This document shows positions 34,066-53,597 of a stretch of 64,000 nucleotides of DNA, piece by piece. The first letter of the stretch is position 1; each line of letters opens with the position of its first letter. The translations under genes were made by a program, and so were the position numbers. The notes beneath the pieces were generated by a model. That model had not been told where the DNA came from. It was given only the letters and a program-made list of their open reading frames with translations, and ran no database searches. The stretch lies in contig QPGO01000013.1 in assembly GCA_008632985.1 (NCBI GenBank), positions 62,001 through 126,000 of the forward strand, written 5' to 3'. The DNA is from Psammoneis japonica (lineage: Eukaryota).

Positions 34066-34639
34066 GGGTTGCTTGAAGTCAACACACAGTTGTGTCAACA
34101 TGCTCACTTTGCAAGTTGTGTGGGCTCCACCATGCAGCATGCACTTTTAGCCTGCACGCATCATTTTCTGCTGCAATGAGAGCCCCATGACAAAAGATGT
34201 TGCTGGCATCTGCCACTTCTCATTCTCGTGTGGTGCATGCTGTGCAGTGCACATCATGCTCCCTGCCCATGACAAGGGCCACAGAGTGCCAGAAACATCT
34301 TGCTGACAGCAGAGCACAATCTGCTGCAGATGATTGTGTTTGTCTGTCACTCAGTTGTGGTGTGGGCAGTGTGCCATTGTCATTTCTGTGTGGGGTCAAC
34401 TCACTCTGGCTGGCAGGGTGGGCCTGCACAACTCTGTCAGCTCTCTGCACATTTTGACTTTTGTGTTCTTGCTGGACAAGCATCAGATGTCAATGGCACA
34501 CTGGTCCTCATGCTTGCCATTTTCTTGTTCATTGTTTTTGTTCAGACCAGCTTCTGCTGTGCTTTCTGTCCTGGGTGTGTTTCCACTTGGCTTGATGTGC
34601 TGCATCCAACACAGCACACCTCTGCCACTGAAAAGTGTC

Positions 34640-35560
34640 AGCTGCACTGGGCTTGCTTGTGTGGCAGCATGCACCACAGCTCATGTGTGGCAAATGTGAC
34701 CACTGCAAACACACTGCTCAATGGGGGTCATCCTCATCCAGCTCCATGTCCTGCACTGAAAATGAGTGCATCCTGTTTTCAGTTGTCTGGTGCACATTCA
34801 ACATTCTTTGCTGTGATGGAGCAGTTCACCTGTGGGCTGCACTTGGACATGGGTTTCCTTTGAAGGCTGCAGCCATCCTGTGTTTTTGTTTGACCAATTC
34901 AGCCATGAATTTGAAACCTCTGTTGAAGATTGCCTTTCTTGGTCATGGATGGTGTCTGCATGGCCATGCTTGTGCATTGTGCAGCTGGCACCACAGCTCA
35001 TGTGTGGCAATTGTGATCACTGCAAGCAGCACACCACTCCACAGGCAGGGGTCATCCTCACCCAGCTCCACATCCTGCACCAAAAACAAGTGCATCATGG
35101 TTTCAGTTGTCTGGTGCACATTCTCTGCTGCTGTAGAGTTCACCTGCAGGTTGCACTCAGTTGTGGGTTTCTTTTGAATGCTGCAGCCATCCAGTGTTGT
35201 TTGACCTCTGTGTCAAAGATTGCCTTTCTTGGCCATGGATGTCTGCGTGGCCATGCTTGCACCACAGCTGGCACCATGGCTCATGTGTGGCAAATGCAAC
35301 CACAGCAAAGCACACTGCACTGTGGGGGTCATTCTTGTCCTCCAGCTCCACATCCTGCACCAAAAATGAGTGCATCATGTTTCCATTTGCATGGTGCAAA
35401 TTCTCTGCTGTTAAGTTCCCCTGCAGGTTGCACTTGATTGTGGGTTTCTTTTGAAGGCTGCAGTTGTCCAGTGTTGTTTGACCATCTCAGCCACAAATTT
35501 AATGCCTCTGTTGAAGATTGCCTTTCTTGGCCTTGGACATCTGCGTGGCTGTGCTTGCTT
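34640..35560. repeat. Degenerate tandem repeat, ~3 units of ~280-320 bp
   Basis: Anchor CCAGCTCCA..TCCTGCAC..AAAA at ~34738, 35062 and 35342; GGGTTTC.TTTGAA.GCTGCAG and AAGATTGCCTTTCTTGG each recur three times. Confidence 0.75.
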
Positions 35561-35699
35561 GATGACACTCAACACACAGCATTGGCACACTCAGCAGTGG
35601 CTTCTTCAGCAATCTCAAACCAGCCTTTCACAGGGTCAACTGCTGCAGAGCTTCCCACAGATGTGGGAGTTTCTTTCCTCATCACTTGACATTGCACTC

Positions 35700-37480
35700 C
35701 CATGTCTTGTCTGTGCATGCTGAGGCTTCCCCCATGGGACAATTTCATTTGCTTTTTCTGATGGCAACTTGCTTCCCACACTTTGGTTTTGTCTCTCTTT
35801 GTCTTCTGACACATGATTTGGCTGCATGCTTGGAGCTCTTCTTGTTGGAGCACACTGCAGCTTGCATGCCAGGAGCATGCTGGGCAGAAGCAGTGCCGGG
35901 CAACAAGAAACACCTTCTCAGTTTGTGTCTCTCCAGGATGGAACAACTGGAGACAATGCCAGTCAGTCACCTGCTTCTGCAGTGATGCTGGAACAAAAAT
36001 TTTGACCTCAGCACAAAACAGTTGTCTCATGGACATTTCTCCTCCACAAAAAAGCACACTGGGAGTGCTCCTCCACATGCAAGCTTTCTGCAATGGGCTC
36101 TTGTCCTTGTGCTGCTCCACTTGCAGTTGTTTCATGAAGCTGGTGGGTGCCACTCAGTCATCCACTGCTTGTGCTGTGTGAAGGCCAGGTGAAGAGGGCA
36201 TGCTTTGTGCATTTCCATGGCAGCATCATGGGGTCACACACTTGGAGTCCAAGGGACAGAGTTAGATTGAGACAGCTCAGCTCACAAGCAACCAAATTGT
36301 GGTGGCATTTGGGGCATGTCACAATTCAAGCCTGTGCTGTTTGCACATGGCAAGTGCTGGTGCATTGCACACTTGGTCTTTTGAACATTTTGCAAGTGTG
36401 AGATTTTTGTGACCAGCACAGCATGTGGTCATGAAACAACCAAGAAGCATGGGATCTGAACTCTTTCAGAGGCTCAGCAATGGCACATGATTCTCTCTCT
36501 GCCATTGCACAATTCAACTGAGCACTGTTGCACATTTGGCCATTGTCTGCAACATGCATTTGTGCTTCATGAGAAGAGCAATGAAACAAAAAATAAAACT
36601 TGTGTGTGTGTGTGTGTGTGTGTGATTGAGTCTCCACAGGCCTCCCAACTTTTCAATGGTCAGCCAAGGTGAGAGTCACTGTCATTTGAGTTCTAAGTTG
36701 ATGCTTGTTCATTTTCAGCCACAAATCTGGCACTGGCGCCAAAGCCACCATTTGGGTTGACAGTTGACTTTTCCACTGATCATGGATTTGCAATGTGTTT
36801 CATTTTGTGGCTCAGCTTCTTGATTAGAGTTGATTCATTGCTGGCTTGGGAGAGCTTCAGCTCATTTGCCCATTGCTTGTTTTTTCTGTTTCTGCTGCAC
36901 CCATCTCTTTGTTGCATGAGGCACCACACAAATCAGCCACTGATCTGTTGTTGCAAGACAATGACTTGCCCCTGTCACCACATGAAAAGACACTCCTTTC
37001 AAAACAACAAACTCCTCATGGAACCAAGCCCTTTTTGACAAACAAACCAGCGCAGCTTCAAACTCAAATCCTTTCCACCCATCAAGTGTCAACCTGCACT
37101 TCAAACCCCAAATCACAGTGTCAAGTCATCCCCACAGTGGCTGTGTTGTCATTGAACCTTGTTGTTGTTCATGCTTCCTGCCACAAAATGCTCATCAAAC
37201 CACAATTTGACAAATTCCAGTGTTGGCCCAGATCTCCTGTCAGTGTGGGTCAATCTGTGCCTCATTCAGAGCACCACTTTCAAGCTGTTGATTGACAACA
37301 AATGCACTGCAAATGCTTTTTGGTGGGGTGCCAAGTCATTGGGCCAACATGGCTGCAATTTGGTTTTGAGCCATTCTTTTGGCCCGTGTCTGCGCACTGC
37401 ACACTCTGTTTCATCTGTGGAAGTTGATTTCTGTGGGTGAGAAAGCCAAATCATGTCTGCTGTCCATTCAGCTCTTCCTT
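35700..37480 (-). pseudogene. Heavily decayed Ty3/Gypsy pol relic (RT start, RNase H, integrase zinc-binding region)
   Basis: QLN(Y>C)AMAERES.AI.E.LKEFR (RNase H); KIFVPASLQKQV.DW(Y>H).LQLFHPGETQTE (integrase H2C2); KLP..KA.EI.PW; P(Y>H)QKAF.V. Confidence 0.6.
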
Positions 37481-38289
37481 GTCACTTTGCAAGTGCACCA
37501 GGGTTGTCTCTTTCAGAAGATTGCAGAGGGTCACTTGGATGCTGCACTTGTTGAAGTGCTGGCATCAACTTGCTTGTTGGAGAGAACAAGGGCAAGCATT
37601 CTCCACCCACCCAAGGACTCCAAGACCTGGGCTGCATGAGTGGCAGTTGCAACCAAGGCTTTGGGGACAGAAAACTCATTTGACATTGGGGCTTTGTGCA
37701 AAGGTTGGCATGGACAATTGGTGCCACATTGTGACAGCTGTGTTGTCAACACAAGCTCAGTGCCACAAAGGCTTGCTCAACAACTCACAGCAGGAAAACT
37801 TGACAAAAGGCTGTGAGCCTCCATGAACTGTGTGGGACAAAATCAACAAAGCTTGATTTTGCATTTCTGACTTGCATCCCAGCCAGTCCTCCCATGACAT
37901 CCATTCTTGCTTGAACTTGAGATCAGGGTGAAGTGGAGGGCAGCTTGCCCATTTGTTGCAGCTCTTCATTGCTTCCAACAAAGAGAAACTTCTTGTTTCA
38001 AAAATGCTGCTGGAAATTTCTCCACATTCTTCTCAAGCCATGTCTCTCTGGCATTCCCAGCACACTGCTGCTCACCCACTGCCATTCAGCAATCAACCCT
38101 TTGAATGAGCCACACCCTCCACATCCTGCTCACATGTGCATCATCATGTCTTTGTGACACAGCCCATCATTGTCACATCATCCTGCTGTCTGTGGCAGTG
38201 TCACTCTGCTGTCACCACACCAGCCAACCAGCACTGGTCAAATCTTGAAGAATCTGTGGACCAAAAAGTGCACCTTCCAATCATTCAAC

Positions 38290-39900
38290 CACTGGGATGT
38301 TGGGGTTGGTTGATGACATCATGGGGTCCTTGCTCTCTGGAGTGTGTGAAACTCAAGTCTGCTTGTGTTGGGGACAAGGTGACTTGGGGCCACAACACCA
38401 CAACATCAGCCTTGCAATGCTTGACCACAGTTCTCAACCCTTCAACCACCAGACTTGAGCAATTTGCTTGCTTGCATCACACACGTGTCACAAACAAAAC
38501 ATTTTCAAACATGAACAACAAAAAATTCATGCAGTTTGGTTTTGGAGTGCACATTCATCAAAAATCTGGGGAGCCATTTTCAAAATTTAGAAAGTTCAAT
38601 GTCAACTTTTAACATCAGGTTTTTGCATGCTTCATCTGTGCATGGAGAGGAGCTGAATCTCAAGAACCTTCAACAATGAAAGTTGTGAGGAGTTGCTGTT
38701 GCAAATGGAGCAACAATGCCATGGCACCCTTGGAGCAGCAAATCTCCACCGGTGGAGATTTGCTCCCACACAAGCAAAGGCATCTCTGGAGTGCACTTTG
38801 TGTGCACTGTGGGTTGCACTTGATGACATTTTCAACACTGTGGTGCTCATCATGTCATCACACAAACATGTGAGATGTCACAAATTCCTCAAGCAGCTGG
38901 AGCAACTTGTCTCCACCTTGCTCCCTCAGCCAGAGGAGGGTCAAAGAGTGTTGCCTGCTGGGGTCCACCAGATGCCACTTGTGCCAGGTTTGTTGGCACC
39001 ATCATGGGGTCCTCTCACTCTTGAGTTTGGAGGTTCATTTTTGCCATTGGGGACAAGGTGTGACATGGGGCCACAACACCACAAGATCAGGCCACAGCTC
39101 TTAAAGTGCCACCTGGGGTCCACAGACACAGCCAGTGCAGTTGGCTTGCAGTTGTTGGGTTGGTTGGCACCATCATGTGGTGCTTTCACTGTGGAATTGG
39201 CAAGTTCAAGTCTGCACCTCCTGTTGGAATGAGGTGATGTGGGGCCACAACTGAACAATGCAGGCCTTGCACTGCTGCTCAACCATGGTTGCTGCAGCAT
39301 TGTCCAGGGTCCTCTAGAGACTGCCGGTGCCCTCAGCTTGCTGTTGTCAGGCTGGTTGGTGCCACCATTTGGCCCTTCTTTCACTCTAGCTGGAGTTTGG
39401 AAATTCATGTCTGCTGTTGGGGACAAAGTGTGACATGGGGCTGCAACACCACAAGATGGGCTCATCAACTTTGCAACAGTGTTGCCTGGGGTCTGCAGTG
39501 TCCTCAGCTTGCAGTTGTTGGGTTTGTTGGCTTTGTTGGCCCCACTGCCTTTGGTGCTTTCACTGTGCTGGAGTTGGGAAGCTGGGTCAAGGAGGTGACG
39601 TGGGGCCACAGCCACACAACACAAGTCCAAGCCTTGCACTGCTCAACCATGGCTGGTTGTTGCAGTGTCACCTGGGGCCCACCTTTGGCTTGCTGTTGTC
39701 AGGTTGGTTGGTGCCATCATTGGGTCCTTTCACTGCTGTGGGGAGGTGGGAAATTTAAGTTTGCTGCTGTTGCTGCTGTTGGAGACAAGGTGGCATGGGG
39801 CCACAACACCACAAGATCAATCTTGCAAAGCTCAGCCACAGCTCTTAAAGTGTTGCCTGGGATCCACCAGAGACCACCAGCTCCCTCAGCTGGCAGTTGC
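38290..39900. repeat. Degenerate ~180-bp tandem repeat (further units at ~49470-49830)
   Basis: GGGGACAAGGTG(A/G)C(A/T)TGGGGCCACAACACCACAA-like units near 38370, 39050, 39230, 39420, 39590, 39780, 49535 and 49800. Confidence 0.7.
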
Positions 39901-41202
39901 CTGGGTTGGGTTGGTTGGGTTGGAACATCAGGGTGTGAGGCAGTTTTCACAGGACAGCAAGACAATGTTGCAGTGAATGACACAGTGACGATGGTTGATG
40001 TGGCAAACTTCTTGTGTTCACAACTCATGTTGAGTTGTGGGTCTTGTGCTCAATTTTTAGCTTTTGCACCCAGTTGACATGGCAACAGCAGCAACAGCAA
40101 CAGAGTTGTGTTTGCAATCCATGTGGCAAGCTGGGGATTGGTGAGACTGAGTGTGCGCCAGTCAGCAAGCCATGAAATCCCAGCACAGAAGCCAAAAGGA
40201 GCTGGCTGGGAAGTCACCAAGAATCCAAAGGTGCAACTCATGTCAGCGGATTATTGTGGCAAACAAGCTGGCTGGATGAAGGCAAAGAAACAGTCTCTGG
40301 AAGGCCTTGCAGCAAGGCCAGGAAGCTGTCAAGGGTCTTGTGGTGAAGTTGTGTCATGGGGGAGGATGCAACTGAGCATGGATGCACAAAACATTTTAAG
40401 GAGTGGATGCACAATGCCATTCTTGGGTGCCAAGTCAGGATGAAACAGACAGATGGTCACAGGAAGACCATGAGAAAAACAAGCAAGCATGTTGGAAGAA
40501 TGTTTGAGCCAGAGATGCAGGTGCTCCTGGTGTCTCTGAGGCAGGAGACCTGCTGACTGGAGGAACTGGAGCATCCATCAGGTGCAACCATTTGCACTGG
40601 AGAAGGACAAGGCAATGTTGAGAAAGCAATGCAATCACTGCACAAACCAGGGTGCAATCTACATGACACAGAAGGCAAAGACATTCAAAAAAATTGTGGG
40701 GCAGTGCACAAAGGCCATCCATCACAAGATTGAAGGAGTGACAGAGTTTGTGAGAGTCACGAAGGAGTTGTGGCACTGTTGGGAACTCTCAAGTTGATCT
40801 CATTCAGCAAAAATGGAAGCAGCTGGGCACTCATTCATCAAGATGAAGGAGAGGCACTCAAAGATTGCTGCAGCTGGTCTTTAATTGAGATGACAGAAGG
40901 GTCCCATGGCAGGGTCATCTCAAAAGAAATCACCAAGAAAGCAGATGGGTTCAGCACAGATGCTGATGACACCCAAAAGAAAGAAAGGAGCAAGTTGTCA
41001 GTGGCACTGCCAATGGAGGGCACCAAAGAGCATTGGTGTGTCTTGAAAACCTGCACCAGCAGTGCACACTGGGGATTGATGATTGCTCCAATTCAGCCAA
41101 CAAGGCACTGCAGGTGTTGGGCACATGTGGGACAATCAACAAGACACCTGAGGGTGCAAGTTTTGCACAGAACAAGAAAAAAGAGCTCAAGTGCTGGAGA
41201 TG

Positions 41203-41677
41203 AGTCGAAGCTCGCATGTCCACGCAAGCTCCGAGTGCCTTCCTAACGCATCGACTGGATGTCCACTCCAGATCGACACCTCAGGCAGAACACAAGCAGG
41301 TGGAATCTACTGATGAGCGGTGACGAGCATTTGGTCTTTCACCAAAGTGCCAGTGACCAAATTGTGAGCTGCCTAGACTGAATCTGCTGAGTGCACCCAA
41401 ACAGAGGTTGATCCGCAGGTTTGCACCAGTGGCCAGTGCAAACTTCAGGGTTGACCACATTCACAACAATCACCCAAATGCTGCTGAACCAATCTGTGGT
41501 TGGTCCAACATCTGTGCAAAGCCTGTGATCTCCAAAGCACCGCCCATGATCCCCAAAGCATTCGGCTTGAGAAGAATCAAGTCTACGTGGCGCGAAAAGA
41601 ATTTCAATGAGAATTCCGACTGACGGAAGTACAGACACAACAGAGAATCTGGGTCGGTGGACAGACGAACCACGACT
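41203..41677 (-). repeat. 3' LTR (475 bp)
   Basis: Direct repeat of 48522-48993; ends AGTCG...CGACT. Confidence 0.92.
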
Positions 41678-41823
41678 CTCCCTCTCATTCACAGATTCCA
41701 GCAACCAACAAGAAAATCGCAAACGAGAAAGCTCACACAATTGGCACAAGTTCAGAGCAAAGCTCCTGCATCTTGACCGAGCCACAACATGCAACAAACA
41801 AAGGAAGCGATGCTTCCAAAGCA

Positions 41824-44800
41824 CTGCCACCCCTGGACCTTCAACCGGTTGTTCTCGAAGAGCTCTCGAGTCAAAGGCTTGGCAAGACAATCGGCGAGTT
41901 GCTCGGCCGATTCCACCTTGATCGTGTCAAACTCATCACAATGCGACCAGAACCAATGCCACTTGACGAGAAAATGCTTGGTGCAATTGGTGATGCGGTG
42001 GTTGGCAGCCAGGCAGCAAGCGCCTTGATTGTCTTTGAACATGCGCGCACGAACCGAAGTCCTGAGATCTTGGGAGATGTCTGGGGTAAAGACGATCTCA
42101 AGGAGCAGGTTCTTCAAAGGCAGGAGAGTCCAAAGAGCACAGGAGGTGGCTTGACACTTGGCTTCGAGGGTGGAGCAAGAAACAGCTGACTGGAGCTGCG
42201 ATTTCCACACCAAAGGGCATCCACTGAGAGTTGTGATGCATCCGGTGTGAGACCTCACAGAATTCGGATCAGAATCCGCTTCGCAGCGACAGAGACCAGC
42301 AAAATCGGCGTCGACCCATAAATCAAGATCCAAACGACCGGGTGGAGATGGCAGCATCCCCTGATCACGCATCCTCTTCAAGCAGCGGACCAGAGTCTTG
42401 ACGGCGGTGGCGCGCGACTGTTTCGGGTTGGAATTGAAGTGTGCAACCTGACTGACGGCAAGGGAAATGTCAGGACGGGCATTGGTGGACAAACACAGGA
42501 GCACTCCAATGATGGAGGGATGACTCCAGTCCTCCTGCATGGGATCTCTGTCTGCATCAGTGCCGAGGGCTTGGGACGCTGTGGGGAGCAGGTTCGGTTT
42601 GCTGTCAACCAAGCCGGCAGCTGACAGGATCTTGTCAATCAACCCTTTCTGCATCAACTTGACAGCACCGTCATCTCTCCTTTCGAACTTGACACCCAGG
42701 AACTCGGTGAAGCCACCCTCCTTCATCAATTCAAATCCTTTCTCGCGCAGCTGAAACATCAACTGATCAATGGTGGACTCCTGCGCTGCACTGATTCCAC
42801 AATCGTCGACATGCAGGCAGACCATGCAATCATGGTGGAGCAGGAGACATTGGCTGCACTCGCTTTAGATGAAACCCAAGTCCAAGAAGGCTTGCAGACA
42901 ATGTTCGTGCCACAACTTTGGAGCCGAAGAGAGTCCACAGAGACTCTTGACGAGCTTGAGACAAGCCTTGGGTCCTTTTGTCGAACTGAAACCTCGTGGA
43001 AGATGAGTCCAAACTGGTTCTTCCACGGGAAGTGCTGCTTGAACGAATGTGGACTGGAAATCGGCGGATGCCGTGTGCCATCCAAGAATGAGACTCAATG
43101 CCAAAAACACTTGAACCGCACTCCAGGCCACAACCGGTGCATGAGTGTCAAACAGACTTCCTTCCTGCAGATCGCCGCGACAACAGTGGCGAGCCTTGCA
43201 CTTCTTGATCTCGCCTGAAGGTGATCGTTTGCGACAAAACACCCAAGCACCGGGAAGGATCTTGGTTTGAGCATCGGCTGCAGGTGCCTCGACCCACGTT
43301 CCTTGATGGACAAGTGCAGCAATCTCGATCTCAGCCACTTTCAACCACTTGTCGCGATCGGAAGAGCACATGGCCTCGTCCCACGATGGCGCACCCGGAT
43401 CCTTGACTTCATGCGCCGACGCCTCACATGCGGCAGGAGTGGTCATGGATGTGTTGCAACCATGGTCAAATTTGTGTGCATGATGGAAATCAATGAAGTG
43501 GGGCAAGCATCCGTGTCCCTGAGATCCATCACATCCAAACCGCTGGGGTGCAGCACGATTCCGGGTAGAGCGACGAACTGGGGTTGGAGAGGGGCGTTGT
43601 GCGCTGGGTGGAGCCACAGGGGGCGACTCCCTCTCTTGACCAAGATCCGAAGAAAGGCTTCGAGGGGTGGGAGGCTCCCTCTGAGGACTTGGTGACACAT
43701 TTGAGTTGGCAGCGGGTGCTCTCTCCCTCTGAGGCGAGTCTGAAGCCACGGGTTCAGGAGGAGACTCTAAAGGAGGCACAGACTCCACCTCAGGGATCGG
43801 AGGTTCCACAACAGGACTCGAGGGGGCCTCGGGAGAAGATGCTGGTGCCTGAGCAGCCGGAGGAGGGACCTGCAAGGGTTTGGGAGGCGACCGGCGGGTG
43901 ACGGTTTTGCGGATTTCCTCGGATCGGCGCTCACATTCTTGGTGTTCTTGACGGATGTCAACATCAGCATGCTCTTCATCATCCACAGTGTGTTGACACA
44001 CACTGTCTCCGAAAAGAGACGGCAGGCAACGAGCTGGCATTGGCAGGAACCGTCGCAAACCAATCATCAAAAACGACATGGAATTGTGGAGTGATGGCTC
44101 CCATTTCAAGACTCAAGACTAGCGGGGCTGACGAGGCATGCTCGGGGCTGAGTCCCACACAGACATGCCGACTCGCGCGGGGTTTCCACTTTGGCAGTTT
44201 CTTTCCATTGGCAAGAGCTTTGTCAAGAACGTAAACAGGGCACCCCCAAACATGACAATCCTGGAACCGAGAGTGAGGGTTGCATGTCTGGGTGAACACA
44301 TCCTGTGGACTTAGACCCGCAGATGGGTCTGGCATCGCGTCACAAAGCATGACAGCATGATCCACAGCCAAAGGCCAAAGAGCAGCGTCCGCAACATCAG
44401 GCCAATGGATTGCCGCATGCAACATCACACTTCTCGCGATCGACATCGCAGTGTGCATTGCTCGTTCACAAACCCCATTGTGATGGTGAGCTCCTGCACC
44501 GGCATGCTTTGAAGCTTGAGCAAAAGATTCCAAGTGAACCCTGAAATTGGCCGACGTGAACGCCTTTCCATTGTCGCTCAGACATTCTTGGGGAATGATG
44601 CCATGGTCACGACAATGGGCCTCAAACGCGTTCTTGGCCGTCAAAGTTTCATGGGCGTTGAGGTGAGTTTGATGTTGAACGTTGATGCAACCAGATGCAT
44701 GATCCACAAAGATTGCTCCGCCTGAATGCTGATGTTTTATGCTCTCCTTTCCAAAAGCATGTTTCAGGCGACCACGAGTGGAACAAACAAAATGATCAAC

Positions 44801-47800
44801 CGACACTCGTTGACCAGGGAACAGTTGGTCCTTCTTTAAAGCTCCAGCTCGATCCTTGACGACACGAGAAGTCTTTCCGGGGCTGGGACGGCGTTTTTGT
44901 TTTCCATGTTGGCATGCGGCACAAAGGAGCAGACGATCGATACGGCAAGCGCGTTCATGCAAACGACGGGTGCCCTCGGAGTGGGGTGGAACTCCCGTGC
45001 GCATCAAAAATTGCACCTTTCGAAAGCTCAGATGCCCGAGACGAAAGTGCCAATGTAGTGGCTCCTTTTCAGCAGGTGAGACATTGTGATTGTGTTCCAC
45101 AATCGTCGACAACGTCAAATGAAACTCCTCACAAATTTGTTGACTTGCTTGATTCGCGCAGGCCCATGCCACCGGCAGGTTAGTTGAAGGTTCAATCAAC
45201 ACTTCAACACCTCGGCTGTGTCCTTGTTCGCGATTCTTGGATCCACTGAGGATGGTGCAGTCCGACAGCAGCTCGATGGACTCATCCGAGTGTGTCTGCA
45301 AGAGACTTGTCGTGCTCAAGAGATGAGCCTTGGACTTGGGGACACAGTGGGCCGGAACCTTCAGGGTCCGAAGCACCCCAGTGACATCAACAAAAGACCA
45401 AGCGACATGTCCAACACCTGCCACATGGAGCCCCTTTGCGATGCCTTGGAGCCGGACAGTGACAGGTGGTTTCTCGAGAGGCCCGACGAAGTCGTCCTTG
45501 CAAGGTGAGACCGATGCACTTGCTCCTGAGTCCCAAATGACCGGGAAAGCATGCTCTTCAACCACTTCCTTTGTCTCCTCAGGACTTGCAAACGCCGCCT
45601 TGAGAGCACCAGCAACAGAAAGTAGAGGTGACGGGACGTCAGCATTGGCAAGATGAGCCTTGGCTGCTGGGGAGCAGACAGCGTCAAGCTGGGAGCGCGT
45701 CAAACCGTGCGCAACGTTCGAACCAACAGGGCGACACGTGGGTGCATTGAGGTTCCAACGACCTTGATGACGAACATCGGGACCCCGTTTTAGAGCAGCA
45801 CTCTTGCAACGTCTGGTGCCCTTGGGACGACCGACTTCTCCCTCTTGACCGAGGAGAGGACGTGCGCGCATGAAGGTGAGTGACCGCTCGAAGGCCTTGA
45901 CCTCTTCACTGAGGTCGTGCAACTGATTGCGCTGCTGCTGCTTGATGTCAGGCGCCCCACGGGCACGTTGGACGAGAGAGGGATGCCTGGGTGGAGTGCG
46001 GCGGCGTCCGCAGCGAGGCTGAAGCTCCCGCAGGTGACGACGCCCCCAACGTTTGCAATGCTTGGAGAACCTGGGTCCTTGGCGTGTGGCCCAGCGGGGA
46101 GGAGGGGGTGGAGGAGGAGCACGCAGGGCTTCGGCACGAGCATCACGCTCAAACTTAGATGGCAAGAATGCAGCCACTAGAAGGAGAAGGAACCAGAGAG
46201 CGGGCAAAGGATGGAGACGCCAATGTGACGAGACGTGCGACGCAACGACCGTCACGAGCCAGACCATGGCGTTGACTCCAACAATCCACCAGTCGGCCGG
46301 AAGCTGGGAATGCCAATGTCCCAAGGCAGCATGGAGCAGCAGAGATGCAAAAGGGTGGAGCAAGGTGAGTGCAACCTGAAACAGTCCAAGCAGCACGTCC
46401 TTGAACCCTGGCTCAAAGTCGAATTCCGCGTGCCACGCTCCAGGATCCAGGAAGAGGGTGTTGGCCTGCTGAGTCGGCGCAGGAGGTGACTCATCCTTCT
46501 GCCCATGCCTGGCAGTGCCGTGAGTGGTCGACCAACGATGGCACTTGGCACACCAGTGCCAAGTCTTGCCCTGAGCAACCTTGGACTCAGGTTGTCCGGG
46601 ACGAGGCGCGACCTTCTTCCAGTTGCGCGCGATGCCACCATCACCATTGCCTCCGTTGCCACCTTGACTCCCATTGCCACCGGAGCGGGTCCTGCCCCTT
46701 CCTCCTTGTCCTCCACTGTTTTGTCCAGGGTTGGAGCCGCCCAGGTTGTTGTCAGTGCCCTCGCTGGACTTGTTGGGACAGTCACGTGCCCAGCGTCCGA
46801 GCTTGCCGCAGTTGTTGCACGGAGAGTTTTCCGGAGTCTTCTTGCGGGGAGCAGCCGTCTGCTGGAAGAGAGCATTGAACTGGGCCTGAGTGAGTGGAAC
46901 TCCAACCGTTTGACAAGTGGCTGAGGGATCAAGTGCCAGGTTTCCAAAGGCTCTGGGAGCGGCTTTGGAGTCTGTCGCGTGCTTGACAGGATCCCACTGC
47001 GTGTTGTTCTTGAACAAGCGGCAGCGGTCCAGGATCTTTCCAATGACTTGAGAGTGGGTAAGGTTCTTGGACGCAAGGTGTCGTTTTGCGTCCGTTTTGG
47101 ACTTGCACGCTATCTCAACAAGTGCTTCGCTCAAGTTCTCTTTCATGGTGCGAAGGGCGTGCTTGAACTGCTGACCGTTTTCGCCATCCCCGCCAGCTTC
47201 CAGGCAAGCGTTGACCAAGGCAAGCACCAGCTTGTGGTTGCACTGACCCGCAACATCTAACTCTTGGGCCGCAGTCTTGAACTTGGACAGGAGCTGGGAG
47301 AGATCCTGACCGGCAAACTGGGAGGGCTGGAGTTCCTCCAGCTGCTTTTTGAGCTGCTTGAAGCGTTCGATGGACGTGCTCTGGAGGATCACGATGAGAG
47401 CCATCCAGACTTTTGGAAAGCAATCCAACTCTTCCATCTCCAGATCCAGCTGTGCGGCCAGGCTAGCCTCCAAGGAGTTCTTGAGAAACTCAGCAGCGTC
47501 CCTGTCATTGGATGAATCGTGGGAGTCACACTTGGCGAGTTGAGGTGCGACAAGACGGGCGACGCTTGATTTGGAATGCCGAGGATGTCCTTCAACGCAA
47601 GACGTCACGGAAGTTGAGTCCTCGGGGTCCTGCAGGTAAGTTGCCGCATCCAAACTGCAGTCCTTGAGATGCTTCATCACGTTCTTCTCAAAGGTTGCAA
47701 GATCTCCCTTCTTGTCGAACTTGGTTGAAAGTCTGGCAACGTGGCAGGCCTTGCTCTTCTGGGTGGAAGAAACGTGGTGGGAGCGACACTGATTTGGAGA

Positions 47801-48187
47801 CGTTGGACTGGAGTTGGGAGTTTCCAATCCAGACCAGTCAGCCTTGGGTTTCCCACTGGTCCAAGCAACTTTCTCAGTGGAACCAATGGCGACAACCCCC
47901 CCATCTTAGGAGCCTTGGGTTTGTAGACTTTCGTCTTTGGCATCGCCGCGGCTGCCATGGCAGCCACAGCCTGAACAGTGCGACGTTCGTCTTCCGTCAT
48001 GCCAGAGCCTGCAGCGGGCTCGTCATCATCATCGTCCGAGTCGTCATCCGAATCGTCCGGGTGATGTTCCAAGGGCGGAACAGGGTCGTCGTCTGGGTTG
48101 TTGGGGTCCTGAGGTGGTGGATTATCCTCCGGTGGAGGTTGGTCCTCAGGAGGCTGGTCCTCGAACACTTCGGGGTCGTCAGCCATG
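41824..48187 (-). pseudogene. Copia gag-pol polyprotein broken into 4 ORFs
   Basis: Zn knuckle CNNCGKLGRWARDC, WHWCAKCHRWSTTH, protease IWDSGAS, integrase WH.RLGH/CAACQ.GK/VSVDHF/SDNG/NGVCER/WGCPVYVL, RT KAR..CRGD.Q/(Y>H)APVV/KSL(Y>C)GL/(Y>H)VDD, RNase H WVDADFAG/STLEA/QLAD..KPL. Confidence 0.92.
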
Positions 48188-48521
48188 TCCGACAGCGCGC
48201 TTGAAGCCATCAAGTAAAACCAATCGTCTGGGACATTCTCAATCAAAGAGTGTGAGCTCAGAGAACTCTCTTGGGTCTCAGGAGGGCCACGGGGTGGAGC
48301 AGGGCCTGAGATGGTGCATGTGCAAAATCAACAACAAACCTTCTGGCGGAACCAGCTGTTCAGCTGACGGAGTCAGTCACAGCACTTGATGTCAAGAGCG
48401 TGGAGCACAGCCAATGAGGAGCGCTGACGGCATCAGAGCCGTTGATGGGGTTGCTCTGGTTTGGGCATCCCCAACCGGAAGCGCAGAACGTGTTAAGTCA
48501 CCCCAATTGGGTGAACTGACC

Positions 48522-48993
48522 AGTCGAAGCTCGCGTGTCCACGCAAGCTCCGAGTGCCTTCCTGACGTGTCGACTGGATGTCCACTCCAGATCGACACCT
48601 CAGGCAGAATGCAAGCAGATGGAATCCACTGACGAGTGGCAACGAGCATTTGGTCTTTCACAAAAGTGCCAGTGACCAAATTGCAAGCTGCCTAGACTGA
48701 ATCTGCTGAGTGCACCCAAACAGAGGTTGATCCGCAGGTTTGCACTGGTGGCCAGCGCAAACTTCAGGGTTGACCACATTCACAACAATCATCCAAATGC
48801 TGCTGAACCAATCTGTGGTTGGTCCAACATCTGTGCAAAGCCTGTGATCTCCAAAGCACCGCCTATGATCCCCAAAGCATTCGGCTTGAGAATCAAGTCG
48901 ACGTGGCGCGAAAAGAATTTCAATGAGAATTCCGACTGATGGAAGCACAGACACAACAGAGAATCTGGGTCGGTGGACAGACGAACCACGACC
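48522..48993 (-). repeat. 5' LTR (472 bp)
   Basis: Direct repeat of 41203-41677 with one 3-bp indel and ~18 substituted sites. Confidence 0.92.
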
Positions 48994-50310
48994 AGATGTG
49001 ACAAGGTTGGCCATGTGAAAAGGAAGGACTGGCCTTTGCTCAATGATGATCACGTGTTGGTGGAGTCAGATGTTGTCAGCCATCATGGGGGTTAACAAGG
49101 CAGTTGACATGGTGTTGGGTTGCATGGTGCTGCCCAACTGTTGTCCTCCTTCAGTTGGCGCACATGAGCCCAGTCAACTGATGGCTCATGCAAAGGAGTT
49201 GGTTGGAACATCAGAGTGCAAGGCAGTTTTTGCAGGACAGACATGCAATGTTGCATGGAATGATGCACTGATGATTGTTGATGACACGGTGAATTTACAT
49301 TCACAGCTCATGTTGAGTTGTGGGTCTTGGGCTCCATTTTTAGTTTCTGCACCCAGCTGGCATGGTGACAGCAGTGACAGCAACAGAAACATGTCTGCAA
49401 TCCATGTGGTGAGTCAGGGATTGGTGAGACCAAGCATGTGCCAGTTGGCAAGCCACAAAATCCCAACAGGTTGGCACCATCATGAGGCCACTTCCCTGCA
49501 AAGTTCAGAAGTTCAAGTCTGCATCAATCTGCTGGGAACAAGGTGACATGGGGTCCTTTCATCCTGGAGTTGGGAGTTTGAAGTGTGCTTGTTCTGGCTG
49601 GGAGGACATGCCAGGTTGCCACAACTGAGCAACACCACCCTTGCACTGCTCAACCACAGCTCTTAAAGTGTCACTTGGGGTCCTCCAGAGATCACCAGTG
49701 CCCTCATCCTGCTGTTGTTGGTCTGGTTGGTGGTGCCATCATGGGGCCCCTTCACTCTTAATTTGGGGGTTCAGGTCTGCTTCATGACCTGTCATGGACA
49801 AAAACAGCATGGGACCACAACAGCGCATGATTGCATTGGCACAGGCAGCTGCTTGTTGGGGAGGAGGAACATTGGCAGGAGGTTGCAGTGCCACCATGTC
49901 TCTGGGAGCTCCTGCTGTGCTCCTGGCCATTTGCACACCAGGCACACATCCAGCACCACCATGGGCACACTGACCCAATGGACCTCTTGCTTGACCAACT
50001 CCATGACCACCTTGTGCATGACCACATTGTCCATGACCACCTGCACAACCAACTCCATGACCTCTTCTAGCCTGCTGCCCCTGCAAGTTTCAACCATGAT
50101 GAGAGTGCAACCGCAACAAAGGTTGTGCACATGATGTGGATTGGCTGGAACAAAGATCAGCCTGCAACAGCAGCCCCATAGATGCAAGCTGAGCAACCAA
50201 CTGGCCACATGGATCAGCACAAATGCAAAAATTTCATTGTTGACAAGAGCCACTTGAGATCCTAAAAACTGAGACATCAGTCATTTTTGAACACAGATGC
50301 ACTGAGCTGA

Positions 50311-50803
50311 AAACTTCTCTGCTGTTTTCTGCCAGGGATTGCTGTTGCATCTCACAATGAAAAGCTGTGTCACAGAAACTAACTCTCTTTGAAACACAAT
50401 GACTGGAACATGATGTGATGCAGCCTGCTGGAGCACCAACATGCAAGACAGGCTGTGAGAGACAATGGGGCAACAGCTTGAAGAATGGAGGAAGCAAAGG
50501 CAGTGAAGTGACAGCACTGGATGCAGGTGAGCAGAAACAGCAGCATTGTGCCTTGTTTGCCAAACAAAACATGCCACCAAATTGAAACCTTCTCTGCTGT
50601 CTTCTGCCAGGGATTGCTGTTGCATCTCACAATGAAAAGCTGTGTCACAAAAACTGACTCTTTTTGAAACACAATGACTGGAGAACATGATGTGATGATG
50701 CAGCCTGCCAGAACACCAAGATGCAAGACAGACTGTGAGAGACAGTGGGGCAACAGCTTGAAGAACAGAGTTGGCAAAGGCAGCAAAGTGACAGCATGGG
50801 ATG
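50311..50803. repeat. Direct duplication of ~215 bp (50311-50523 and 50585-50803)
   Basis: CTTCTCTGCTGT.TTCTGCCAGGGATTGCTGTTGCATCTCACAATGAAAAGCTGTGTCACA occurs twice. Differences include TA/TG and TG/CA swaps. Confidence 0.85.
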
Positions 50804-52863
50804 AGAGCATGTGCCACATGTTGAACACTGCCAGGGCAGAAAGCAAACATTGTTGGACACCAAAATTGCAAAATGCACACCAACCAACAAATGAACAAAT
50901 TAAATTGTTGGCATGCTCCAGCCAATGAACAACAACACTTGACAAGATTTCCCACTGGAAAATGTCCAGCAAGCTGCACACCACCATTGGGAGGCATTGC
51001 ATTTCTCCCCACAAAAAATGGAAAGTGCAAAGGCAGCTTTCTGGATGCGAAGTCAAGGTGCATGTGGTGGCATCCCATGCTCAGATCCAGGGATGTTGCC
51101 AGCATTGGAGCCCTTCAAGTTTCAGGAGCAACATGTCCTGGGCATGGCATTTTGCATTGTCCATTTATTTTTGGCCACTGGAAGTCATTGACAAGCCACA
51201 CCATCTGGTCTTTCTTTGTCATTGTGAAGAGCAGAGCTGCCAACCCCAATCTGTTCATGTGTTTTAAAATGCCAACATCAAACAATCATTTTGCCTCAGT
51301 TGTCAACAAGGTTTGCTCACAAGACCTTGGAATCTTGTGCAGCCTGGCATCATGTGGCTCAAGAACAGTGTCCTTGAGCTGAGTGTGGCAGGGGTCACCC
51401 TTTGACTCACCTGAAGTGCTGTCAAACAATGGCTCTTGCTTTTTAAGAATGGCAAGCAGCCAATTTTTTCTGCTGAAATGTGTCCAAACTTTTTTTTGGC
51501 ATTTTCAGCAACCTGTGGCAAGTCTTCCACTTGGGGGGCTTGGCATCCAGGATGGACATGATTTGCTTGCTGTCCCTTTTGGCTCTTAGATGCAGAGCAT
51601 TGTTTTGCTTGCAGCACATCCATGTTTGTCATCAGCATGATCTGGCCAATGACTGTCAGCTGTTCAATGGTTTTTGGTTTAAAAAACAGACAGATTGTCA
51701 ATTCTGCAAGTCTCCAAGCTGGTCATTGTGCAAATGGACTGCATGTTCTCCAGGGCAATTGTTGTGCACATCCTTTCTGGAAGCTTTGATTTGAATCTTG
51801 CAGTGCTTGTTGCTTGCTGGGAATGAGCTGTCAACTGTGCTCCAGCTGGTCTCAGCAGCATTTTTCTGCCCTTTTCTTGCAGTGCCTTCCATCCTTTGCT
51901 GGTGTGCCACTGGCTCTGCTGTCCACCAAAGCTTTGCTTGTTTTTGTTTTGCCTTTTTTGCCACACATGTGGATTTCAAGGCTGTGAACAGCACCGGTGC
52001 TGCATGTTGTTGCTTGCACCATTTTTGTGAGTGTGCTGCAAGAACACAGTGTGATTGAAACTTCTTGGTTGAGCACCAAGACAAGCACTGGTGCGGCAAA
52101 CATGTTCTAGACTGTCATGTTGGCCTGCACCTCAGGCACAACAACTGCTGTTGAGCTCACATTCAGAATCACCAAAGAAGCATCTCAAATTCCTTGTGTT
52201 CCTTGGCAACTTTCTTGTGCTTGGTTTTCTTCATCTAGAGCACTTTCTTGGCTGCTGCACTGATGACTGCACTCAATGTTCTTGATTGTCTTTTTTCTTT
52301 TGCTTGACTCTGTTCACAATTGAGAATGCCTGGTCTTCATCTTCTTGACCTGGTGCTTCAAACTTCAGCACTTTTCAGTCACGTGTCTGCACACTTGATG
52401 CCATGCAATGTGCATGATCTGGCATTTCACTTGCTGTTTGTGATGAGCAATGTGGGGTTGGTCATTTCTGAGTTGGCACATGTCATGCACACACTCACCC
52501 CAAGCTCATCTTGGTGCTCAGCAAATGATGCACAACATGCAACATTGCACGTGGCACCTTTGTTCATCACAGGCATGACTTTGGGTGGCAGCAAAATGCA
52601 TCACGACAAGGTTGACACACAAGTGTGACAACATGCCCGCTCAGCAAAATGAGTGCAAGTTGTGTTGGCTTTGCAATGTGCACTTTTGGGTTGCACATCT
52701 CTTGCTGTGAGAGCTCCATGACACAAGACATTGCAGGCATTTGCTGGTTGTCAGTGTGGTGGTGCTTGCATCACTGCCCTTTTTCTCTCCACCACCATGC
52801 ACCATGACACCACCCTCCCACATCCATGCACATTGGCTCAAATGCCCCCATGAGAGAAACCTG

Positions 52864-53597
52864 TGATGCAAACTCTGGCCAGAGGAACCACTCTCAATGC
52901 TGACACTGAAGCAAACCACACCATGCTCAACTCTGCTGCTCACACTGCCAGCCTTCACTCCGGTGATTCCCCTGCCCCTTTGGCAGCCACTGCTGTGGCT
53001 GATGCCAGCTCCTTTGTGTCAGCCACTGTTGGCCACCATTCTCTGGCCCCCGCTGCTTCTCGAGCGTCATTCATGATCCCCACCCTGCTGCTGATGCCAT
53101 TCCTGACCCCCACTTTCTGCTTTTGCATCAAAGTCAACCACCCTCCCAAAAACCATGGTGAACTCAATCCTGGCATTGTTTGCATCATGATCACGTTGGA
53201 GCACTGTGCTGCCTTTTCTGAGAGAGAGGCCTCTGATGCAAACTCCCACCAGAGATCCCACTCTCAATGCTGACACTGAAGCAAACCACACCATGCTCAA
53301 CTCCACTGCCCACACTGCCAGCCTTCACTCCAATGGCTCCTCCGCCCCTTTGGCAGCCACTGCTGTGACTGATGCCAGCTCCTTTCTTGTGTCGGCCGCC
53401 TTTCGCCACCATTCTCTGGCCCACTGATTCTCGAGTGTTATTCATGATCCCCACTCTCCTGCTGACACCATTCCTGACCCCCGCTTTCTGCTTTTGCATC
53501 AAGGTTAACCACACTCCCAAAAACCATGGTGAACTCAATCCCGGCATTGTTTGCAACATTCTCATGATCACGTTCGAGCACTGTGCTGCCTTTTCTG
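52864..53597. repeat. Tandem duplication of ~360 bp (52864-53220 and 53234-53597)
   Basis: CACTCTCAATGCTGACACTGAAGCAAACCACACCATGCTCAACTC...GAGCACTGTGCTGCCTTTTCTGA occurs twice. Confidence 0.9.

Follow-up and report, generated by a model that had tools for sequence, protein, structure and literature searches.

Structure of the element

The minus-strand element at 41203-48993 of the window, that is, of the whole 64,000-nucleotide stretch of DNA analysed here, is a Ty1/copia retrotransposon, identified as a Ty1/copia insertion from its LTRs, its TSD and its domain order (Table 1). The 5-bp TSD, AGATG, was read directly from the sequence and is exact on both sides (5/5 match). Because the TSD is intact, both LTRs can be assigned to one insertion. 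The LTR at 41203..41677 is bounded by the terminal inverted repeat AGTCG...CGACT, and the stretch adjoining it is a putative polypurine tract, judging from its position and purine content.

The domains follow the order gag, protease, integrase, RT and RNase H, with an RT of the RVT_2 type; the gag_pre-integrs match lies upstream of both RVT_2 matches on the minus strand, as in Ty1/copia elements. Matches to zf-CCHC, rve and SH3_retrovirus in the 1308-aa frame were below the cut-offs. A frameshift within 43979-44112 joins this frame to the RT frame, and an in-frame TAA at 42865-42867 closes the N-terminal RT frame. Homologues of the C-terminal frame stop at query residue 346, and full-length homologues align with the polyprotein end to end. 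The polyprotein is about 2,000 aa long, as in the relatives P0274-P0277. It is not intact: besides the frameshift and the in-frame TAA, 14 of 17 conserved Tyr residues are replaced by His or Cys. The element is a dead member of Ty1/copia, not a non-member.

The best named homologues of the polyprotein are from the diatoms Fragilaria crotonensis, Epithemia clementina and Attheya sp., with 53-58% identity. A search of the protein collection yielded no close member of the family (identity above 67%). Among the closest known systems are the Ty1/copia elements of diatoms, the 'CoDi' lineages. Tyr-free copia polyproteins were seen in unrelated metagenome assemblies (P0282 and P0306).

Table 1. Features of the element, its surroundings and the differences between its LTRs (positions in the window).
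Feature	Position	Strand	Basis or remark
TA-depleted domain around the element	33087..53438	.	71 TA in 20.3 kb; sharp edges beside host genes
Left flank, repeat DNA nearly without TA and CG	34228..41202	.	CG o/e 0.02-0.05; CA/TG about 2x
Left TSD copy, AGATG	41198..41202	.	Identical to 48994-48998
LTR, 475 bp (3' LTR in element orientation)	41203..41677	-	LTR alignment
Polypurine-tract-like stretch adjoining the 3' LTR, GTGAATGAGAGGGAG	41678..41692	-	Sequence read (minus strand)
Open frame, C-terminal part of RT and RNase H, 371 residues	41752..42864	-	RVT_2, E = 2.6e-6
Open frame, N-terminal part of RT, 415 residues	42865..44112	-	RVT_2, E = 8.5e-15
Open frame, 1308 aa: gag (zinc knuckle), protease, integrase	43979..47905	-	gag_pre-integrs, E = 1.2e-9
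LTR, 472 bp (5' LTR in element orientation)	48522..48993	-	LTR alignment
Right TSD copy, AGATG	48994..48998	.	Read directly
Right flank, same TA- and CG-free repeat DNA	48994..52960	.
LTR differences, TA vs CA/TG (4 events)	41245, 41308, 41545, 41630		LTR alignment
LTR differences, CG vs TG/CA (5 events)	41216, 41314, 41318, 41437, 41624		LTR alignment
LTR differences, adjacent CA<->TG doublets (5 events)	41249-50, 41291-2, 41321-2, 41365-6, 41427-8		LTR alignment
LTR differences, other (5 events)	41300 G/A, 41343 C/A, 41473 C/T, 41584 T/G, 41677 T/C		LTR alignment

Differences between the two LTRs

The two LTRs differ at 24 of 472 aligned bases (94.9% identity; 94-97% in a first comparison). 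These differences comprise 22 transitions and 2 transversions, which amount to 19 events, plus one 3-bp indel. An earlier note on this DNA had counted about 18 substituted sites, with four at TA, five at CG, five doublets and about four others; the alignment gives 19 (4, 5, 5 and 5), and the four TA-polymorphic positions that it named agree with the alignment. The left LTR has TA at 41244, 41308, 41374, 41584 and 41630, and the right LTR at 48693 and 48864 only. The first 235 bp of the LTR hold 13 of the 19 events.

Both T>C and A>G are present on the plus strand, and derived states are found in both LTRs. Together with the single insertion shown by the TSD, this bears out the earlier claim that the change took place after integration and independently in each LTR.

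The events were compared with chance by placing 22 transitions and 2 transversions randomly on the LTR in 200,000 runs. Five CA<->TG doublets were observed against a simulated mean of 0.17, and five or more occurred in none of the 200,000 runs. TA, CG and doublet events together number 14 against a simulated mean of 9.9, which is marginal (P(>=14) = 0.059); this combined total is near chance because CA and TG already make up a third of the LTR. The statistical weight rests on the doublets; taken by themselves, the single-site TA and CG events do not exceed chance. Related elements served as a control: their 15 LTR or terminal pairs show 33 differences and no doublets.

Direction of the change

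The element has a TA o/e of 0.09 and a CA/TG o/e of 1.4. TA o/e in related copia loci ranges from 0.34 to 0.88, with a median of about 0.53, and none of the 79 loci falls below 0.3. Tyr accounts for 2 of 1308 residues in the gag-protease-integrase frame and for 0/371 and 0/415 residues in the two RT frames; for comparison, the median Tyr content of 300 copia-type proteins is 2.67%. As had been proposed, the polarity can be read from the protein motifs: the 17 consensus-Tyr columns now hold 9 Cys, 5 His, 1 Tyr, 1 Phe and 1 Trp. Among polarised codons, TA>CA/TG took up 28 of 201 opportunities and the remaining kinds of T/A>C/G change 5 of 354 (odds ratio 11.3, p = 4e-9). A smaller earlier test gave the same direction (18/150 vs 7/293). 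No TA gain was found at the 7 opportunities for it among the polarised codon changes. The polarity is TA loss, not gain. CpG loss is likewise polarised and its direction shown, with CG>TG/CA in excess over other C/G>T/A (24/193 vs 7/264; odds ratio 5.2, p = 5e-5), as in methyl-CpG decay.

A total of 1504 family contigs lie on the element (run X1), 408 of them at >=99% identity. Family states were read from assembled contigs, not reads, in the best 40 of 1679 rows. TA is the majority state both at 48564 (A at 1268.8 of 1613.6 depth) and at 48627 (T at 664.8 of 792 depth). TG, CA and TA all occur at 48630-1, and CG, TG and CA at 48637-8. The family state was readable at two of the four TA-polymorphic sites and unambiguous at none of the doublets. 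A family state of CA or TG at the TA-polymorphic sites would have spoken for gains of TA; at both readable sites the family favours TA.

The TA-poor domain

The depletion extends beyond the retrotransposon. Flank CG o/e is 0.02-0.06, no Pfam match was found in the left flank (34228..41202), and CA<->TG accounts for 52 of 104 doublets in the internal repeats of the two flanks together. TA depletion like that of the element is also seen in these flanks, which are not retroelement DNA, and in a DNA-transposon-like ORF. A second TA-poor stretch, also with sharp edges, lies at 4407-6170. Host genes in the window have a TA o/e of 0.4-0.75 and 1.4-5.8% Tyr, so the loss is locally confined to 33087-53438 and 4407-6170 with neighbouring host genes spared. 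Their CpG o/e is about 1, and any methylation would therefore have to be local. TAA and TAG triplets number 21 and 27 in the element; an equally long host stretch holds 127 and 132. With these two stop codons erased, hypermutated elements retain long open frames.

Rates of loss and LTR dating

A two-parameter model gives a loss per LTR since insertion of about 80% of TpA, about 12% of CpG and 0.6% of other sites. As historical ratios, TpA loss is about 125x and CpG loss about 10x that of the other (non-YR) sites of the same LTRs, the background rate being based on 3 differences in 240 sites. The best fit derives each of the five doublets from TA, at p = 0.795 and with an ancestral count of 14.6 TA per LTR (o/e 0.54). 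The earlier note had derived each doublet from an ancestral TA or CG resolved in opposite directions. Opposite resolution stands, and an ancestral TA accounts for the doublets much better than an ancestral CG: the log-likelihood is -8.83 for TA and -15.66 for CG, and a CG-only model predicts 0.17 doublets (P(>=5) = 1e-6), although the model uses a single rate per dinucleotide class and strongly heterogeneous CpG rates could yield some doublets.

TA survival inside the element, computed separately from the LTR fit, gives p of about 0.83 (0.09/0.53). With this value and 14.3 ancestral TA per LTR, 0.4 shared TA, 4.0 TA vs CA/TG sites and 4.9 doublets are predicted, and 1, 4 and 5 are observed. 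A chromosomal TpA loss of about 80% per LTR thus follows from the LTR pair, the family contigs and the outgroup-polarised codons.

LTR divergence is 0.053 (K2P) over all sites and 3/240 = 0.0125 outside YR dinucleotides. Since TpA and CpG are lost far faster than other sites, LTR dating overestimates the age of the element about four-fold, as the earlier note had anticipated in kind, and annotated LTR-divergence dates will be inflated to that extent. The LTR pair serves as a natural clock experiment for the relative TpA, CpG and background rates at one locus.

Sequence context of surviving TA

YTAR makes up 16 of the 34 surviving TA in the element, compared with 18.9% in relatives (p = 3e-5), and 30 of the 37 in the flanks, compared with 18.6% in host DNA (p = 4e-20). 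RTAY is found at 2/34 and 0/37, respectively, against about 29%. Newly made TAs cannot account for the YTAR excess, because only 20-23% of flank CA/TG stand in a Y__R context. Since the survivors are mostly YTAR, the process appears to prefer a 5'-TAY-3' target (equivalently 5'-RTA-3'), a preference to which the sequence context points. The LTR sites fit it loosely: two doublets are RTAY, two RTAR and one YTAR, and one retained TA is RTAY. The context of the 28 polarised coding events is confounded because Tyr codons are TAY by definition.

Post-integration hypermutation and alternative explanations

Taken as a whole, these data are very probably best explained by post-integration TpA -> CpA/TpG hypermutation of an inserted copia element. 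The Ty1/copia element entered a repeat domain already free of TA and CG. A process acting on chromosomal DNA afterwards turned TpA into CpA or TpG. It affected both strands, worked independently in each LTR and extended throughout the coding region, and each of the five doublets represents one ancestral TA for which one LTR now has CA and its partner TG. In parallel, CpG decayed into TpG/CpA at about 10x background, presumably through deamination of methylated cytosine. The mechanism would most likely be a deamination of adenine in DNA, directed at repeats or foreign sequences and carried out by an enzyme of the TadA/ADAT kind, such as has been proposed in Bigelowiella natans. Such a process would serve as a RIP-like genome defence, wrecking Tyr codons and other codons that contain TA.

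The same pattern could arise from other chemistry, if the T of TpA were targeted, for example by a hydroxymethyl-uracil-type modification in 5'-RTA-3' that is mispaired or repaired to C. Modified T of this type can be linked to such a T>C change. At the palindromic TA, T>C and A>G are indistinguishable from sequence, and the context is equally readable as RTA. The native substrate context of TadA/ADAT enzymes is U-A-C, which agrees with TAY. The one experimental precedent proposes A-deamination with a candidate ADAT2-like enzyme (10.64898/2026.01.13.699255). We regard a T-targeting chemistry as unlikely.

It is quite improbable that the LTR differences were imported, either by ectopic gene conversion from a family copy or by an assembly that joined the LTRs of different copies. 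The family is present in high copy (1504 contigs on the element, 408 at >=99% identity), and the clustering of 13/19 events within the first 235 bp of the LTR would suit such an import. The 5/5 TSD, however, binds both LTRs to one insertion, and TA loss in the LTR pair (0.795) is close to that inside the element (about 0.83), as expected of in-place decay. Even if import were true, a post-integration TpA process in chromosomal copies would still be required, and only the dating would change.

Could CpG decay alone be responsible? The doublets would then be methylated CGs deaminated on opposite strands, and the TA polymorphisms C>T gains. CpG loss is real (5 LTR sites and 24/193 polarised codon changes), the flanks are nearly without CG, and the family shows CG, TG and CA at 48637-8. 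With 18 shared and 5 polymorphic CG, however, a single rate yields too few doublets, by the likelihoods given above, and no TA gain was seen at 7 opportunities. CpG decay alone, which we consider very unlikely, also leaves unexplained the TA o/e of 0.09, the 14/17 conserved Tyr lost and the family TA majority at 48564 and 48627.

Editing before integration, by ADAR-type A>I change on RNA or APOBEC-type change on cDNA, would have made the copy TA-poor at insertion. Edited retroelements are known in vertebrates. ADAR favours a 5' U (10.64898/2026.01.13.699255), which would fit this origin. Reverse transcription yields identical LTRs, yet the LTRs differ at TA-derived sites in both directions; the non-retroelement flanks and the DNA-transposon-like ORF are depleted too, and a master copy without 14/17 conserved Tyr would hardly be active. 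ADAR prefers a 3' G, against which the survivors here are TAG and TAA. Editing before integration is extremely unlikely.

We give next to no credence to the idea that an old element simply drifted under the mutation bias common to this genome or under GC-biased gene conversion. In its favour, TA is under-represented across the genome (o/e 0.4-0.75 in host genes). Against it, about 80% of TA is gone while 3/240 sites differ outside YR, and the domain edges are sharp; the remaining T/A>C/G changes occur 10-fold less often than TA>CA/TG, which argues against a general AT>GC bias.

A broader reading of the hypermutation is put forward tentatively, as possible rather than probable. TpA-erasing hypermutation may be a RIP-like defence common to SAR algae rather than a peculiarity of Bigelowiella. 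In the present case it would act in a host related to diatoms, with retrotransposons, DNA-transposon-like genes and satellite-like repeats as its targets. Its strand-specific 5'-TAY-3' target would point to a TadA/ADAT-type adenine deaminase, and together with CpG decay it would leave silenced DNA free of TA and CG; P0282 and P0306 may be further victims. The 5'-TAY-3' target implied by the YTAR survivors is a testable mechanistic clue for candidate deaminases. Because Tyr is missing, homology searches and gene callers will mislabel proteins of hypermutated elements.

Comparison with known systems

Decay of methylated CpG by deamination is a general phenomenon in silenced repeats, and TCG-type hypermutation occurs in some basidiomycetes. 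The present case shares CG>TG/CA on both strands, which has run at about 10x background in the LTRs and almost to completion in the flanks; such decay accounts for the CG part only, with methylation presumed here. APOBEC or ADAR editing before integration shares the deaminase-type clustered transitions in LTR retroelements. Such editing leaves LTRs identical and affects only retro-copied sequence, whereas here the LTRs differ and non-retro DNA is hit.

With ascomycete RIP the process shares repeat-directed, dinucleotide-specific transitions of chromosomal DNA on both strands, as well as killed transposon ORFs and inflated LTR divergence. The direction is opposite: RIP turns CpA into TpA, whereas the present process destroys TpA and lets CpA/TpG build up. 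Stop codons arise under RIP, and here TAA and TAG are removed; RIP hosts are fungal and the host here is not a fungus. Fungal RIP (C>T at CpA, raised TpA/ApT) was rejected as a candidate, given a TA o/e of 0.09, a CA/TG of 1.4 and TA gain at 0/7. TCG-type hypermutation occurs in some basidiomycetes.

The closest known case, and so far the only prior report, is from a different alga: in Bigelowiella natans, NCLDV and virophage DNA that has integrated undergoes a TpA-specific hypermutation, described in a preprint (Mettrop et al., 2026; 10.64898/2026.01.13.699255). Of the 231 mutations that a mutation-accumulation experiment recorded in two regions of integrated viral DNA, 230 were A>G or T>C, all at TpA; the preprint also names a putative ADAT2-like candidate enzyme (10.64898/2026.01.13.699255). 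Both cases share TpA>TpG/CpA on both strands of chromosomal DNA, restriction to local stretches of foreign or selfish DNA, and long-term low TpA with high CpA+TpG. At the present locus, A>G or T>C likewise falls on TpA (28/201 vs 5/354; TA at 2/2 readable LTR sites), and action on integrated DNA is seen in the LTRs of one insertion, with different derived states and 5 doublets.

The main text on B. natans is without mention of CpG, LTRs or retrotransposons and without trinucleotide or context analysis, whereas here CpG is lost alongside TpA and a 3' pyrimidine is preferred. That text does report reverse-transcriptase and DDE Pfam families as enriched among its TpA-depleted CDS. The targets it describes are viral inserts; here they are an LTR retrotransposon, anonymous repeats and a DUF7869 ORF. 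TA depletion is far deeper here (o/e 0.02-0.1, compared with the Rho of 0.45 given there for the B. natans NCLDV region). The evidence here is historical, from sequence comparison, and the B. natans mutations were, by the same account, observed directly. B. natans is a chlorarachniophyte, whereas the host here looks diatom-related, consistent with long intron-free ORFs. The homologues suggest a stramenopile host; if that is so, the locus would add a second occurrence to a process for which a 2026 preprint is the only description, and would extend that process from viral inserts to retrotransposons and repeats.

Structure of the element

The window contains a dead LTR retrotransposon on the minus strand, which was recognized from paired direct repeats, a target duplication and protein domains. 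The LTRs have inverted termini (AGTCG...CGACT), and a purine-rich tract adjoins the 3′ LTR. In the interior, a minus-strand frame of 1308 amino acids combines a zinc knuckle with a protease motif (D-S-G) and an integrase (gag_pre-integrs, E = 1.2e-9). Beyond a frameshift lie two reverse transcriptase (RT) frames (RVT_2, E = 8.5e-15 and 2.6e-6) with one in-frame TAA between them. Since the integrase precedes the RT, the element belongs to the Ty1/copia group. No second copy was found within the 64-kb window, where the only matches were the element itself and its own LTRs. A search of the window against Rfam returned 0 matches, as did a search of metagenome_contigs with an exact 30-nt stretch of the LTR.

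Coordinates and properties of the features, in window positions
Feature	Position	Strand	Evidence or remarks
LTR retrotransposon	41203-48993	minus	Paired direct repeats, target duplication and domains
LTR direct repeats (LTR3 and LTR5)	41203-41677 and 48522-48993	minus	94-97% identity
Target duplication AGATG	41198-41202 and 48994-48998		Exact, 5 bp, bounding the LTRs
DUF7869 ORF, 592 aa	4393-6168	minus	E = 3.9e-20; 0 Tyr, His 4.9%, Cys 4.2%

Differences between the LTRs

A pairwise global alignment of LTR3 and LTR5 reproduced the difference counts and coordinates of the earlier note. The LTRs differ at 24 of 472 bases (22 transitions and 2 transversions), forming 19 events in addition to a 3-bp indel. 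Four events are TA versus CA/TG, five are CG versus TG/CA, five are adjacent doublets with CA in one LTR and TG in the other, and five are others. When 22 transitions and 2 transversions were placed at random on the LTR in 200,000 runs, a mean of 0.17 CA/TG doublets was obtained, and none of the runs produced five or more. For the 14 events in the TA, CG and doublet classes taken together, the departure from random placement is marginal (P = 0.059). Random transitions often yield TA versus CA/TG or CG versus TG/CA because the LTR consists largely of CA and TG (44 CA and 36 TG are shared by the pair). The claim that the LTR pair records mutation of TA and CG on both strands is thus carried by the doublets, together with the polarity described below, and not by the single-site classes alone. 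Related loci served as a control: 15 pairs of LTRs or terminal repeats, several of them at contig ends and possibly assembly overlaps, contain 0 doublets in 33 differences (19 CG, 12 other and 2 TA).

Direction of the change

Composition, tyrosine content, outgroup polarisation and family copies all show loss of TA rather than gain. The observed/expected ratio (o/e) of TA is 0.09 in the element, versus 0.34-0.88 (median approximately 0.53) in all of the 79 related copia loci from metagenomes, a set retrieved with a Tyr-containing search pattern and therefore biased against hypermutated copies. Over six frames, the element contains 326 TGA, 27 TAG and 21 TAA stops, compared with 295, 132 and 127 in a host stretch of equal length. 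The TA-erasing process also removes the stop codons TAG and TAA, and this erasure accounts for the abundance of long frames on either strand of the element.

Tyrosine is encoded by TAY codons. Only 2 tyrosines occur in the 1308-aa frame and none in the 415-aa and 371-aa RT frames, while the host proteins of the window contain 1.4-5.8% and the median over 300 copia-type proteins is 2.67%. At 17 consensus-Tyr columns, the element has Cys at 9, His at 5, and Tyr, Phe and Trp at one each. With 14 of the 17 now Cys or His, the protein motifs polarise the change as TA loss, as the earlier note had argued.

Close family copies were absent among the proteins retrieved, the best identity being only 59-67%, so outgroups were used for polarisation instead. 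These comprised 23 full-length homologues representing 50%-identity clusters (mafft alignment of 24 of the 30 long ones, with the nearly Tyr-free homologue P0282 excluded) and yielded 576 conserved columns. Departures of the element from these columns that a single transition can explain were counted. TA>CA/TG was found at 28 of 201 opportunities, versus 5 of 354 for other T/A>C/G changes (odds ratio 11.3, p = 4e-9), and CG>TG/CA at 24 of 193, versus 7 of 264 for other C/G>T/A changes (odds ratio 5.2, p = 5e-5). TA gain was found at 0 of 7 opportunities in the polarised codons. A first pass on two other homologue sets gave 18/150, 9/128, 7/293 and 5/188, with an unchanged ranking. On the coding strand, the polarised TA changes are 19 A>G and 9 T>C, indicating that both strands were affected.

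Family copies were represented by 1504 contigs of one public sequencing run (X1) that match the element with at least 80% identity (408, 388, 455 and 253 contigs by identity band). Among the contigs listed, TA is favoured over CA/TG at both readable TA-polymorphic sites of the four, whereas the earlier note had named a family consensus of CA/TG as the outcome that would refute it. At position 48564 (TG in LTR3, TA in LTR5), A accounts for 1268.8 of 1613.6 contig depth, and at position 48627 (CA versus TA), T accounts for 664.8 of 792. The family contigs listed include TG, CA and TA at 48630-1, a site at which the two LTRs agree on TG. Two other runs were given no weight: X2 contains a single matching contig, with TA inferred at one or more of the doublet sites 48640-1 and 48684-5 (26 of 30 differences listed), and X3 contains no contig matching the element.

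Some of the retrieved homologues are themselves unusual. The copia polyproteins P0282 (2061 aa) and P0306 (366 aa) from ENA metagenomes contain only 0.05% and 0.27% Tyr. In P0282, Tyr is missing from all consensus-Tyr columns, and the 48 column-instances from three overlapping alignments are occupied by Cys (28), His (17) or Trp (3). P0369, P0042 and P0030 appear partly affected.

Timing and rates

To describe the LTR pair, each ancestral dinucleotide was assumed to be lost with probability p per LTR, so that it remains shared with probability (1-p)^2, is lost in one LTR with 2p(1-p) and is resolved in opposite directions with p^2/2. For CG (18 shared, 5 polymorphic), p is approximately 0.12 and 0.17 doublets are expected, with a probability of 1e-6 for five or more. 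When all doublets are derived from TA (1 shared, 4 polymorphic, 5 doublets), the model fits well with p = 0.795, 14.6 ancestral TA per LTR and an ancestral o/e of 0.54. The all-TA assignment reaches a total lnL of -8.83, versus -15.66 for all-CG. Of the two ancestors proposed for the doublets, TA or CG resolved oppositely in the two LTRs, TA is thus retained and CG is disfavoured.

The same parameters can be obtained without the LTR counts. Internal TA survival of 0.09/0.53, or approximately 0.17, gives p of approximately 0.83, and 14.3 TA per LTR follow from an ancestral o/e of 0.53. The resulting prediction of 0.4 shared, 4.0 polymorphic and 4.9 doublets compares with 1, 4 and 5 observed. 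Essentially all TA loss thus followed insertion, and the copy was probably intact on landing. The five opposite-direction doublets and the fit of the all-TA model bear out mutation after integration, independently in each LTR.

Where no YR dinucleotide is involved, the LTRs differ at 3 of 240 positions (1.25%), versus a K2P distance of 5.3% over all sites. LTR-divergence dating therefore overestimates the age of the element, as had been predicted, and does so approximately four-fold. Relative to the non-YR sites, a background of three differences only, the per-site rate is approximately 125x at TpA and 10x at CpG.

Extended sequence context

Among the TAs that survive in the element, 16 of 34 are in the context Y-TA-R, with a purine after both adenines, versus 18.9% of 17,118 TAs in relatives (p = 3e-5). 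In the flanks, the repeat DNA on either side of the element, the proportion is 30 of 37, versus 18.6% of 1,730 TAs in host DNA (p = 4e-20). R-TA-Y makes up 2 of 34 survivors in the element and 0 of 37 in the flanks, versus approximately 29%. Newly made TAs are ruled out as the source of the Y-TA-R bias, since only 20-23% of flank CA/TG are in a Y__R context. Because survivors are enriched in Y-TA-R and depleted in R-TA-Y, the process appears to prefer 5'-TAY-3', or 5'-RTA-3' if read on the other base. The LTR sites agree with TAY only loosely, with CTAG as the context of the shared TA and, for the doublets, RTAY at two, RTAR at two and YTAR at one. One-sided contexts among the coding events (YTAY, 5 A>G versus 3 T>C; RTAR, 1 versus 1) are few and confounded by Tyr codons. 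The in-frame stop within the RT domain (42865-42867, minus strand), one of the few TAs remaining in the element, is a TAA in the context CTAA, which belongs to the refractory Y-TA-R class.

The surrounding TA-poor domain and other sequences

A 1-kb profile and the TA and CG positions delimit a TA-poor domain of 20.3 kb (33087-53438) that encloses the element and contains 71 TA. Outside the element, at 34228-52960, CG o/e is 0.02-0.06 and CA and TG are approximately twice expectation. The element retains a CG o/e of 0.55-0.84 despite its TA loss, and it is younger than the flanking repeats. Between internal copies of the flank repeats, 52 of 104 doublets are CA/TG, versus 0 of 21 in the remaining window. 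Pfam assigned no family to 21 ORFs of the flanks and domain edges, with one sub-threshold match to DUF4592, and Tandem Repeats Finder detected only one 2-copy array of 277 bp in the domain. The flanks are anonymous repeats. Repeat units are common to both sides of the insertion (39000-40200 and 49200-49750, 75-82% identity; for example, 40017-40185 with 49300-49468), indicating that the element inserted into an older array of dispersed or tandem repeats.

At the domain edges, TA depletion extends beyond CG depletion by 1.1 kb on the left (33087-34227) and 0.5 kb on the right (52961-53438), and the TA process may spread beyond CpG loss or act sooner. The ORFs at these edges have no Pfam match.

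The DUF7869 ORF appears to be another, isolated target of TA erasure inside a gene-rich stretch. Its region (4407-6170) has few TAs and normal CpG, and the upstream DNA (4000-4407) is TA-dense. An intermediate TA o/e (0.27-0.34) is found at 59001-61000, where a frame of 660 aa that includes an AlgH-like (DUF179) domain contains 1.4% Tyr; this level could reflect mild exposure to TA erasure or mere codon usage. The reverse of the depleted domain is seen at 23001-24000, the sole 1-kb bin with TA over expectation (o/e 1.15), in which CpG is low (0.49).

Proposed mechanism

The LTR alignment, doublets, polarity and rate model confirm the observation of the earlier note and support its interpretation. 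The element inserted, and TpA then changed to CpA or TpG on both chromosomal strands, independently in each LTR. CpG changed more slowly to TpG or CpA. These changes have sharp boundaries and do not extend beyond selfish or repeat DNA. Since A/T sites in other contexts are spared, a directed, enzymatic process would be at work rather than drift. The best candidate would be a TadA/ADAT-like enzyme that deaminates adenine in DNA. The native TadA/ADAT substrate context, U-A-C, matches TAY, but the 3′ G favoured by ADAR does not. Sequence does not distinguish adenine deamination from a modification directed at thymine, which would leave the same outcome at TpA. For the CpG loss, deamination of locally methylated cytosine would be the simplest account; such methylation would have to be local, since host genes of the window have a CpG o/e of approximately 1.

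Comparison with known systems

The phenomenon belongs to a very recently described kind. According to a preprint on mutation-accumulation lines of Bigelowiella natans, 230 of 231 mutations in integrated giant-virus and virophage regions were A>G or T>C changes, every one of them within a TpA, with a rate of approximately 6e-7, roughly 1000x baseline (10.64898/2026.01.13.699255). It further describes 124 TpA-poor window clusters, enrichment of RT and DDE domains among TpA-poor CDS, and an ADAT2-like enzyme as the proposed candidate (10.64898/2026.01.13.699255). Its main text does not mention CpG, LTR, retrotransposon, copia, trinucleotide or context, and its supplements may hold context data (10.64898/2026.01.13.699255). 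The literature searched, a scope outside which most subscription journals fall, yielded no further account of TpA>CpA/TpG hypermutation, whether from diatoms or from other organisms.

The named copia homologues of the element are from diatoms (53-58% identity), and the named relative closest to a GDA1/CD39 host protein of the window is from Triparma (40%). A protein-atlas search yielded only clusters dominated by bacteria, which did not help to place the host. The host genes have long, uninterrupted frames. Judged from these sequences, the host lineage probably differs from Bigelowiella, the relatives of a transposon being weak evidence for its host. Fungal RIP is a functional analogue of the TA erasure seen here, acting in the opposite direction. 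For TpA hypermutation, the locus contributes a host lineage that is probably new, further classes of target, rates recorded quantitatively in a single LTR pair, the co-occurrence of CpG erasure with TA erasure, and a 3′-pyrimidine preference.
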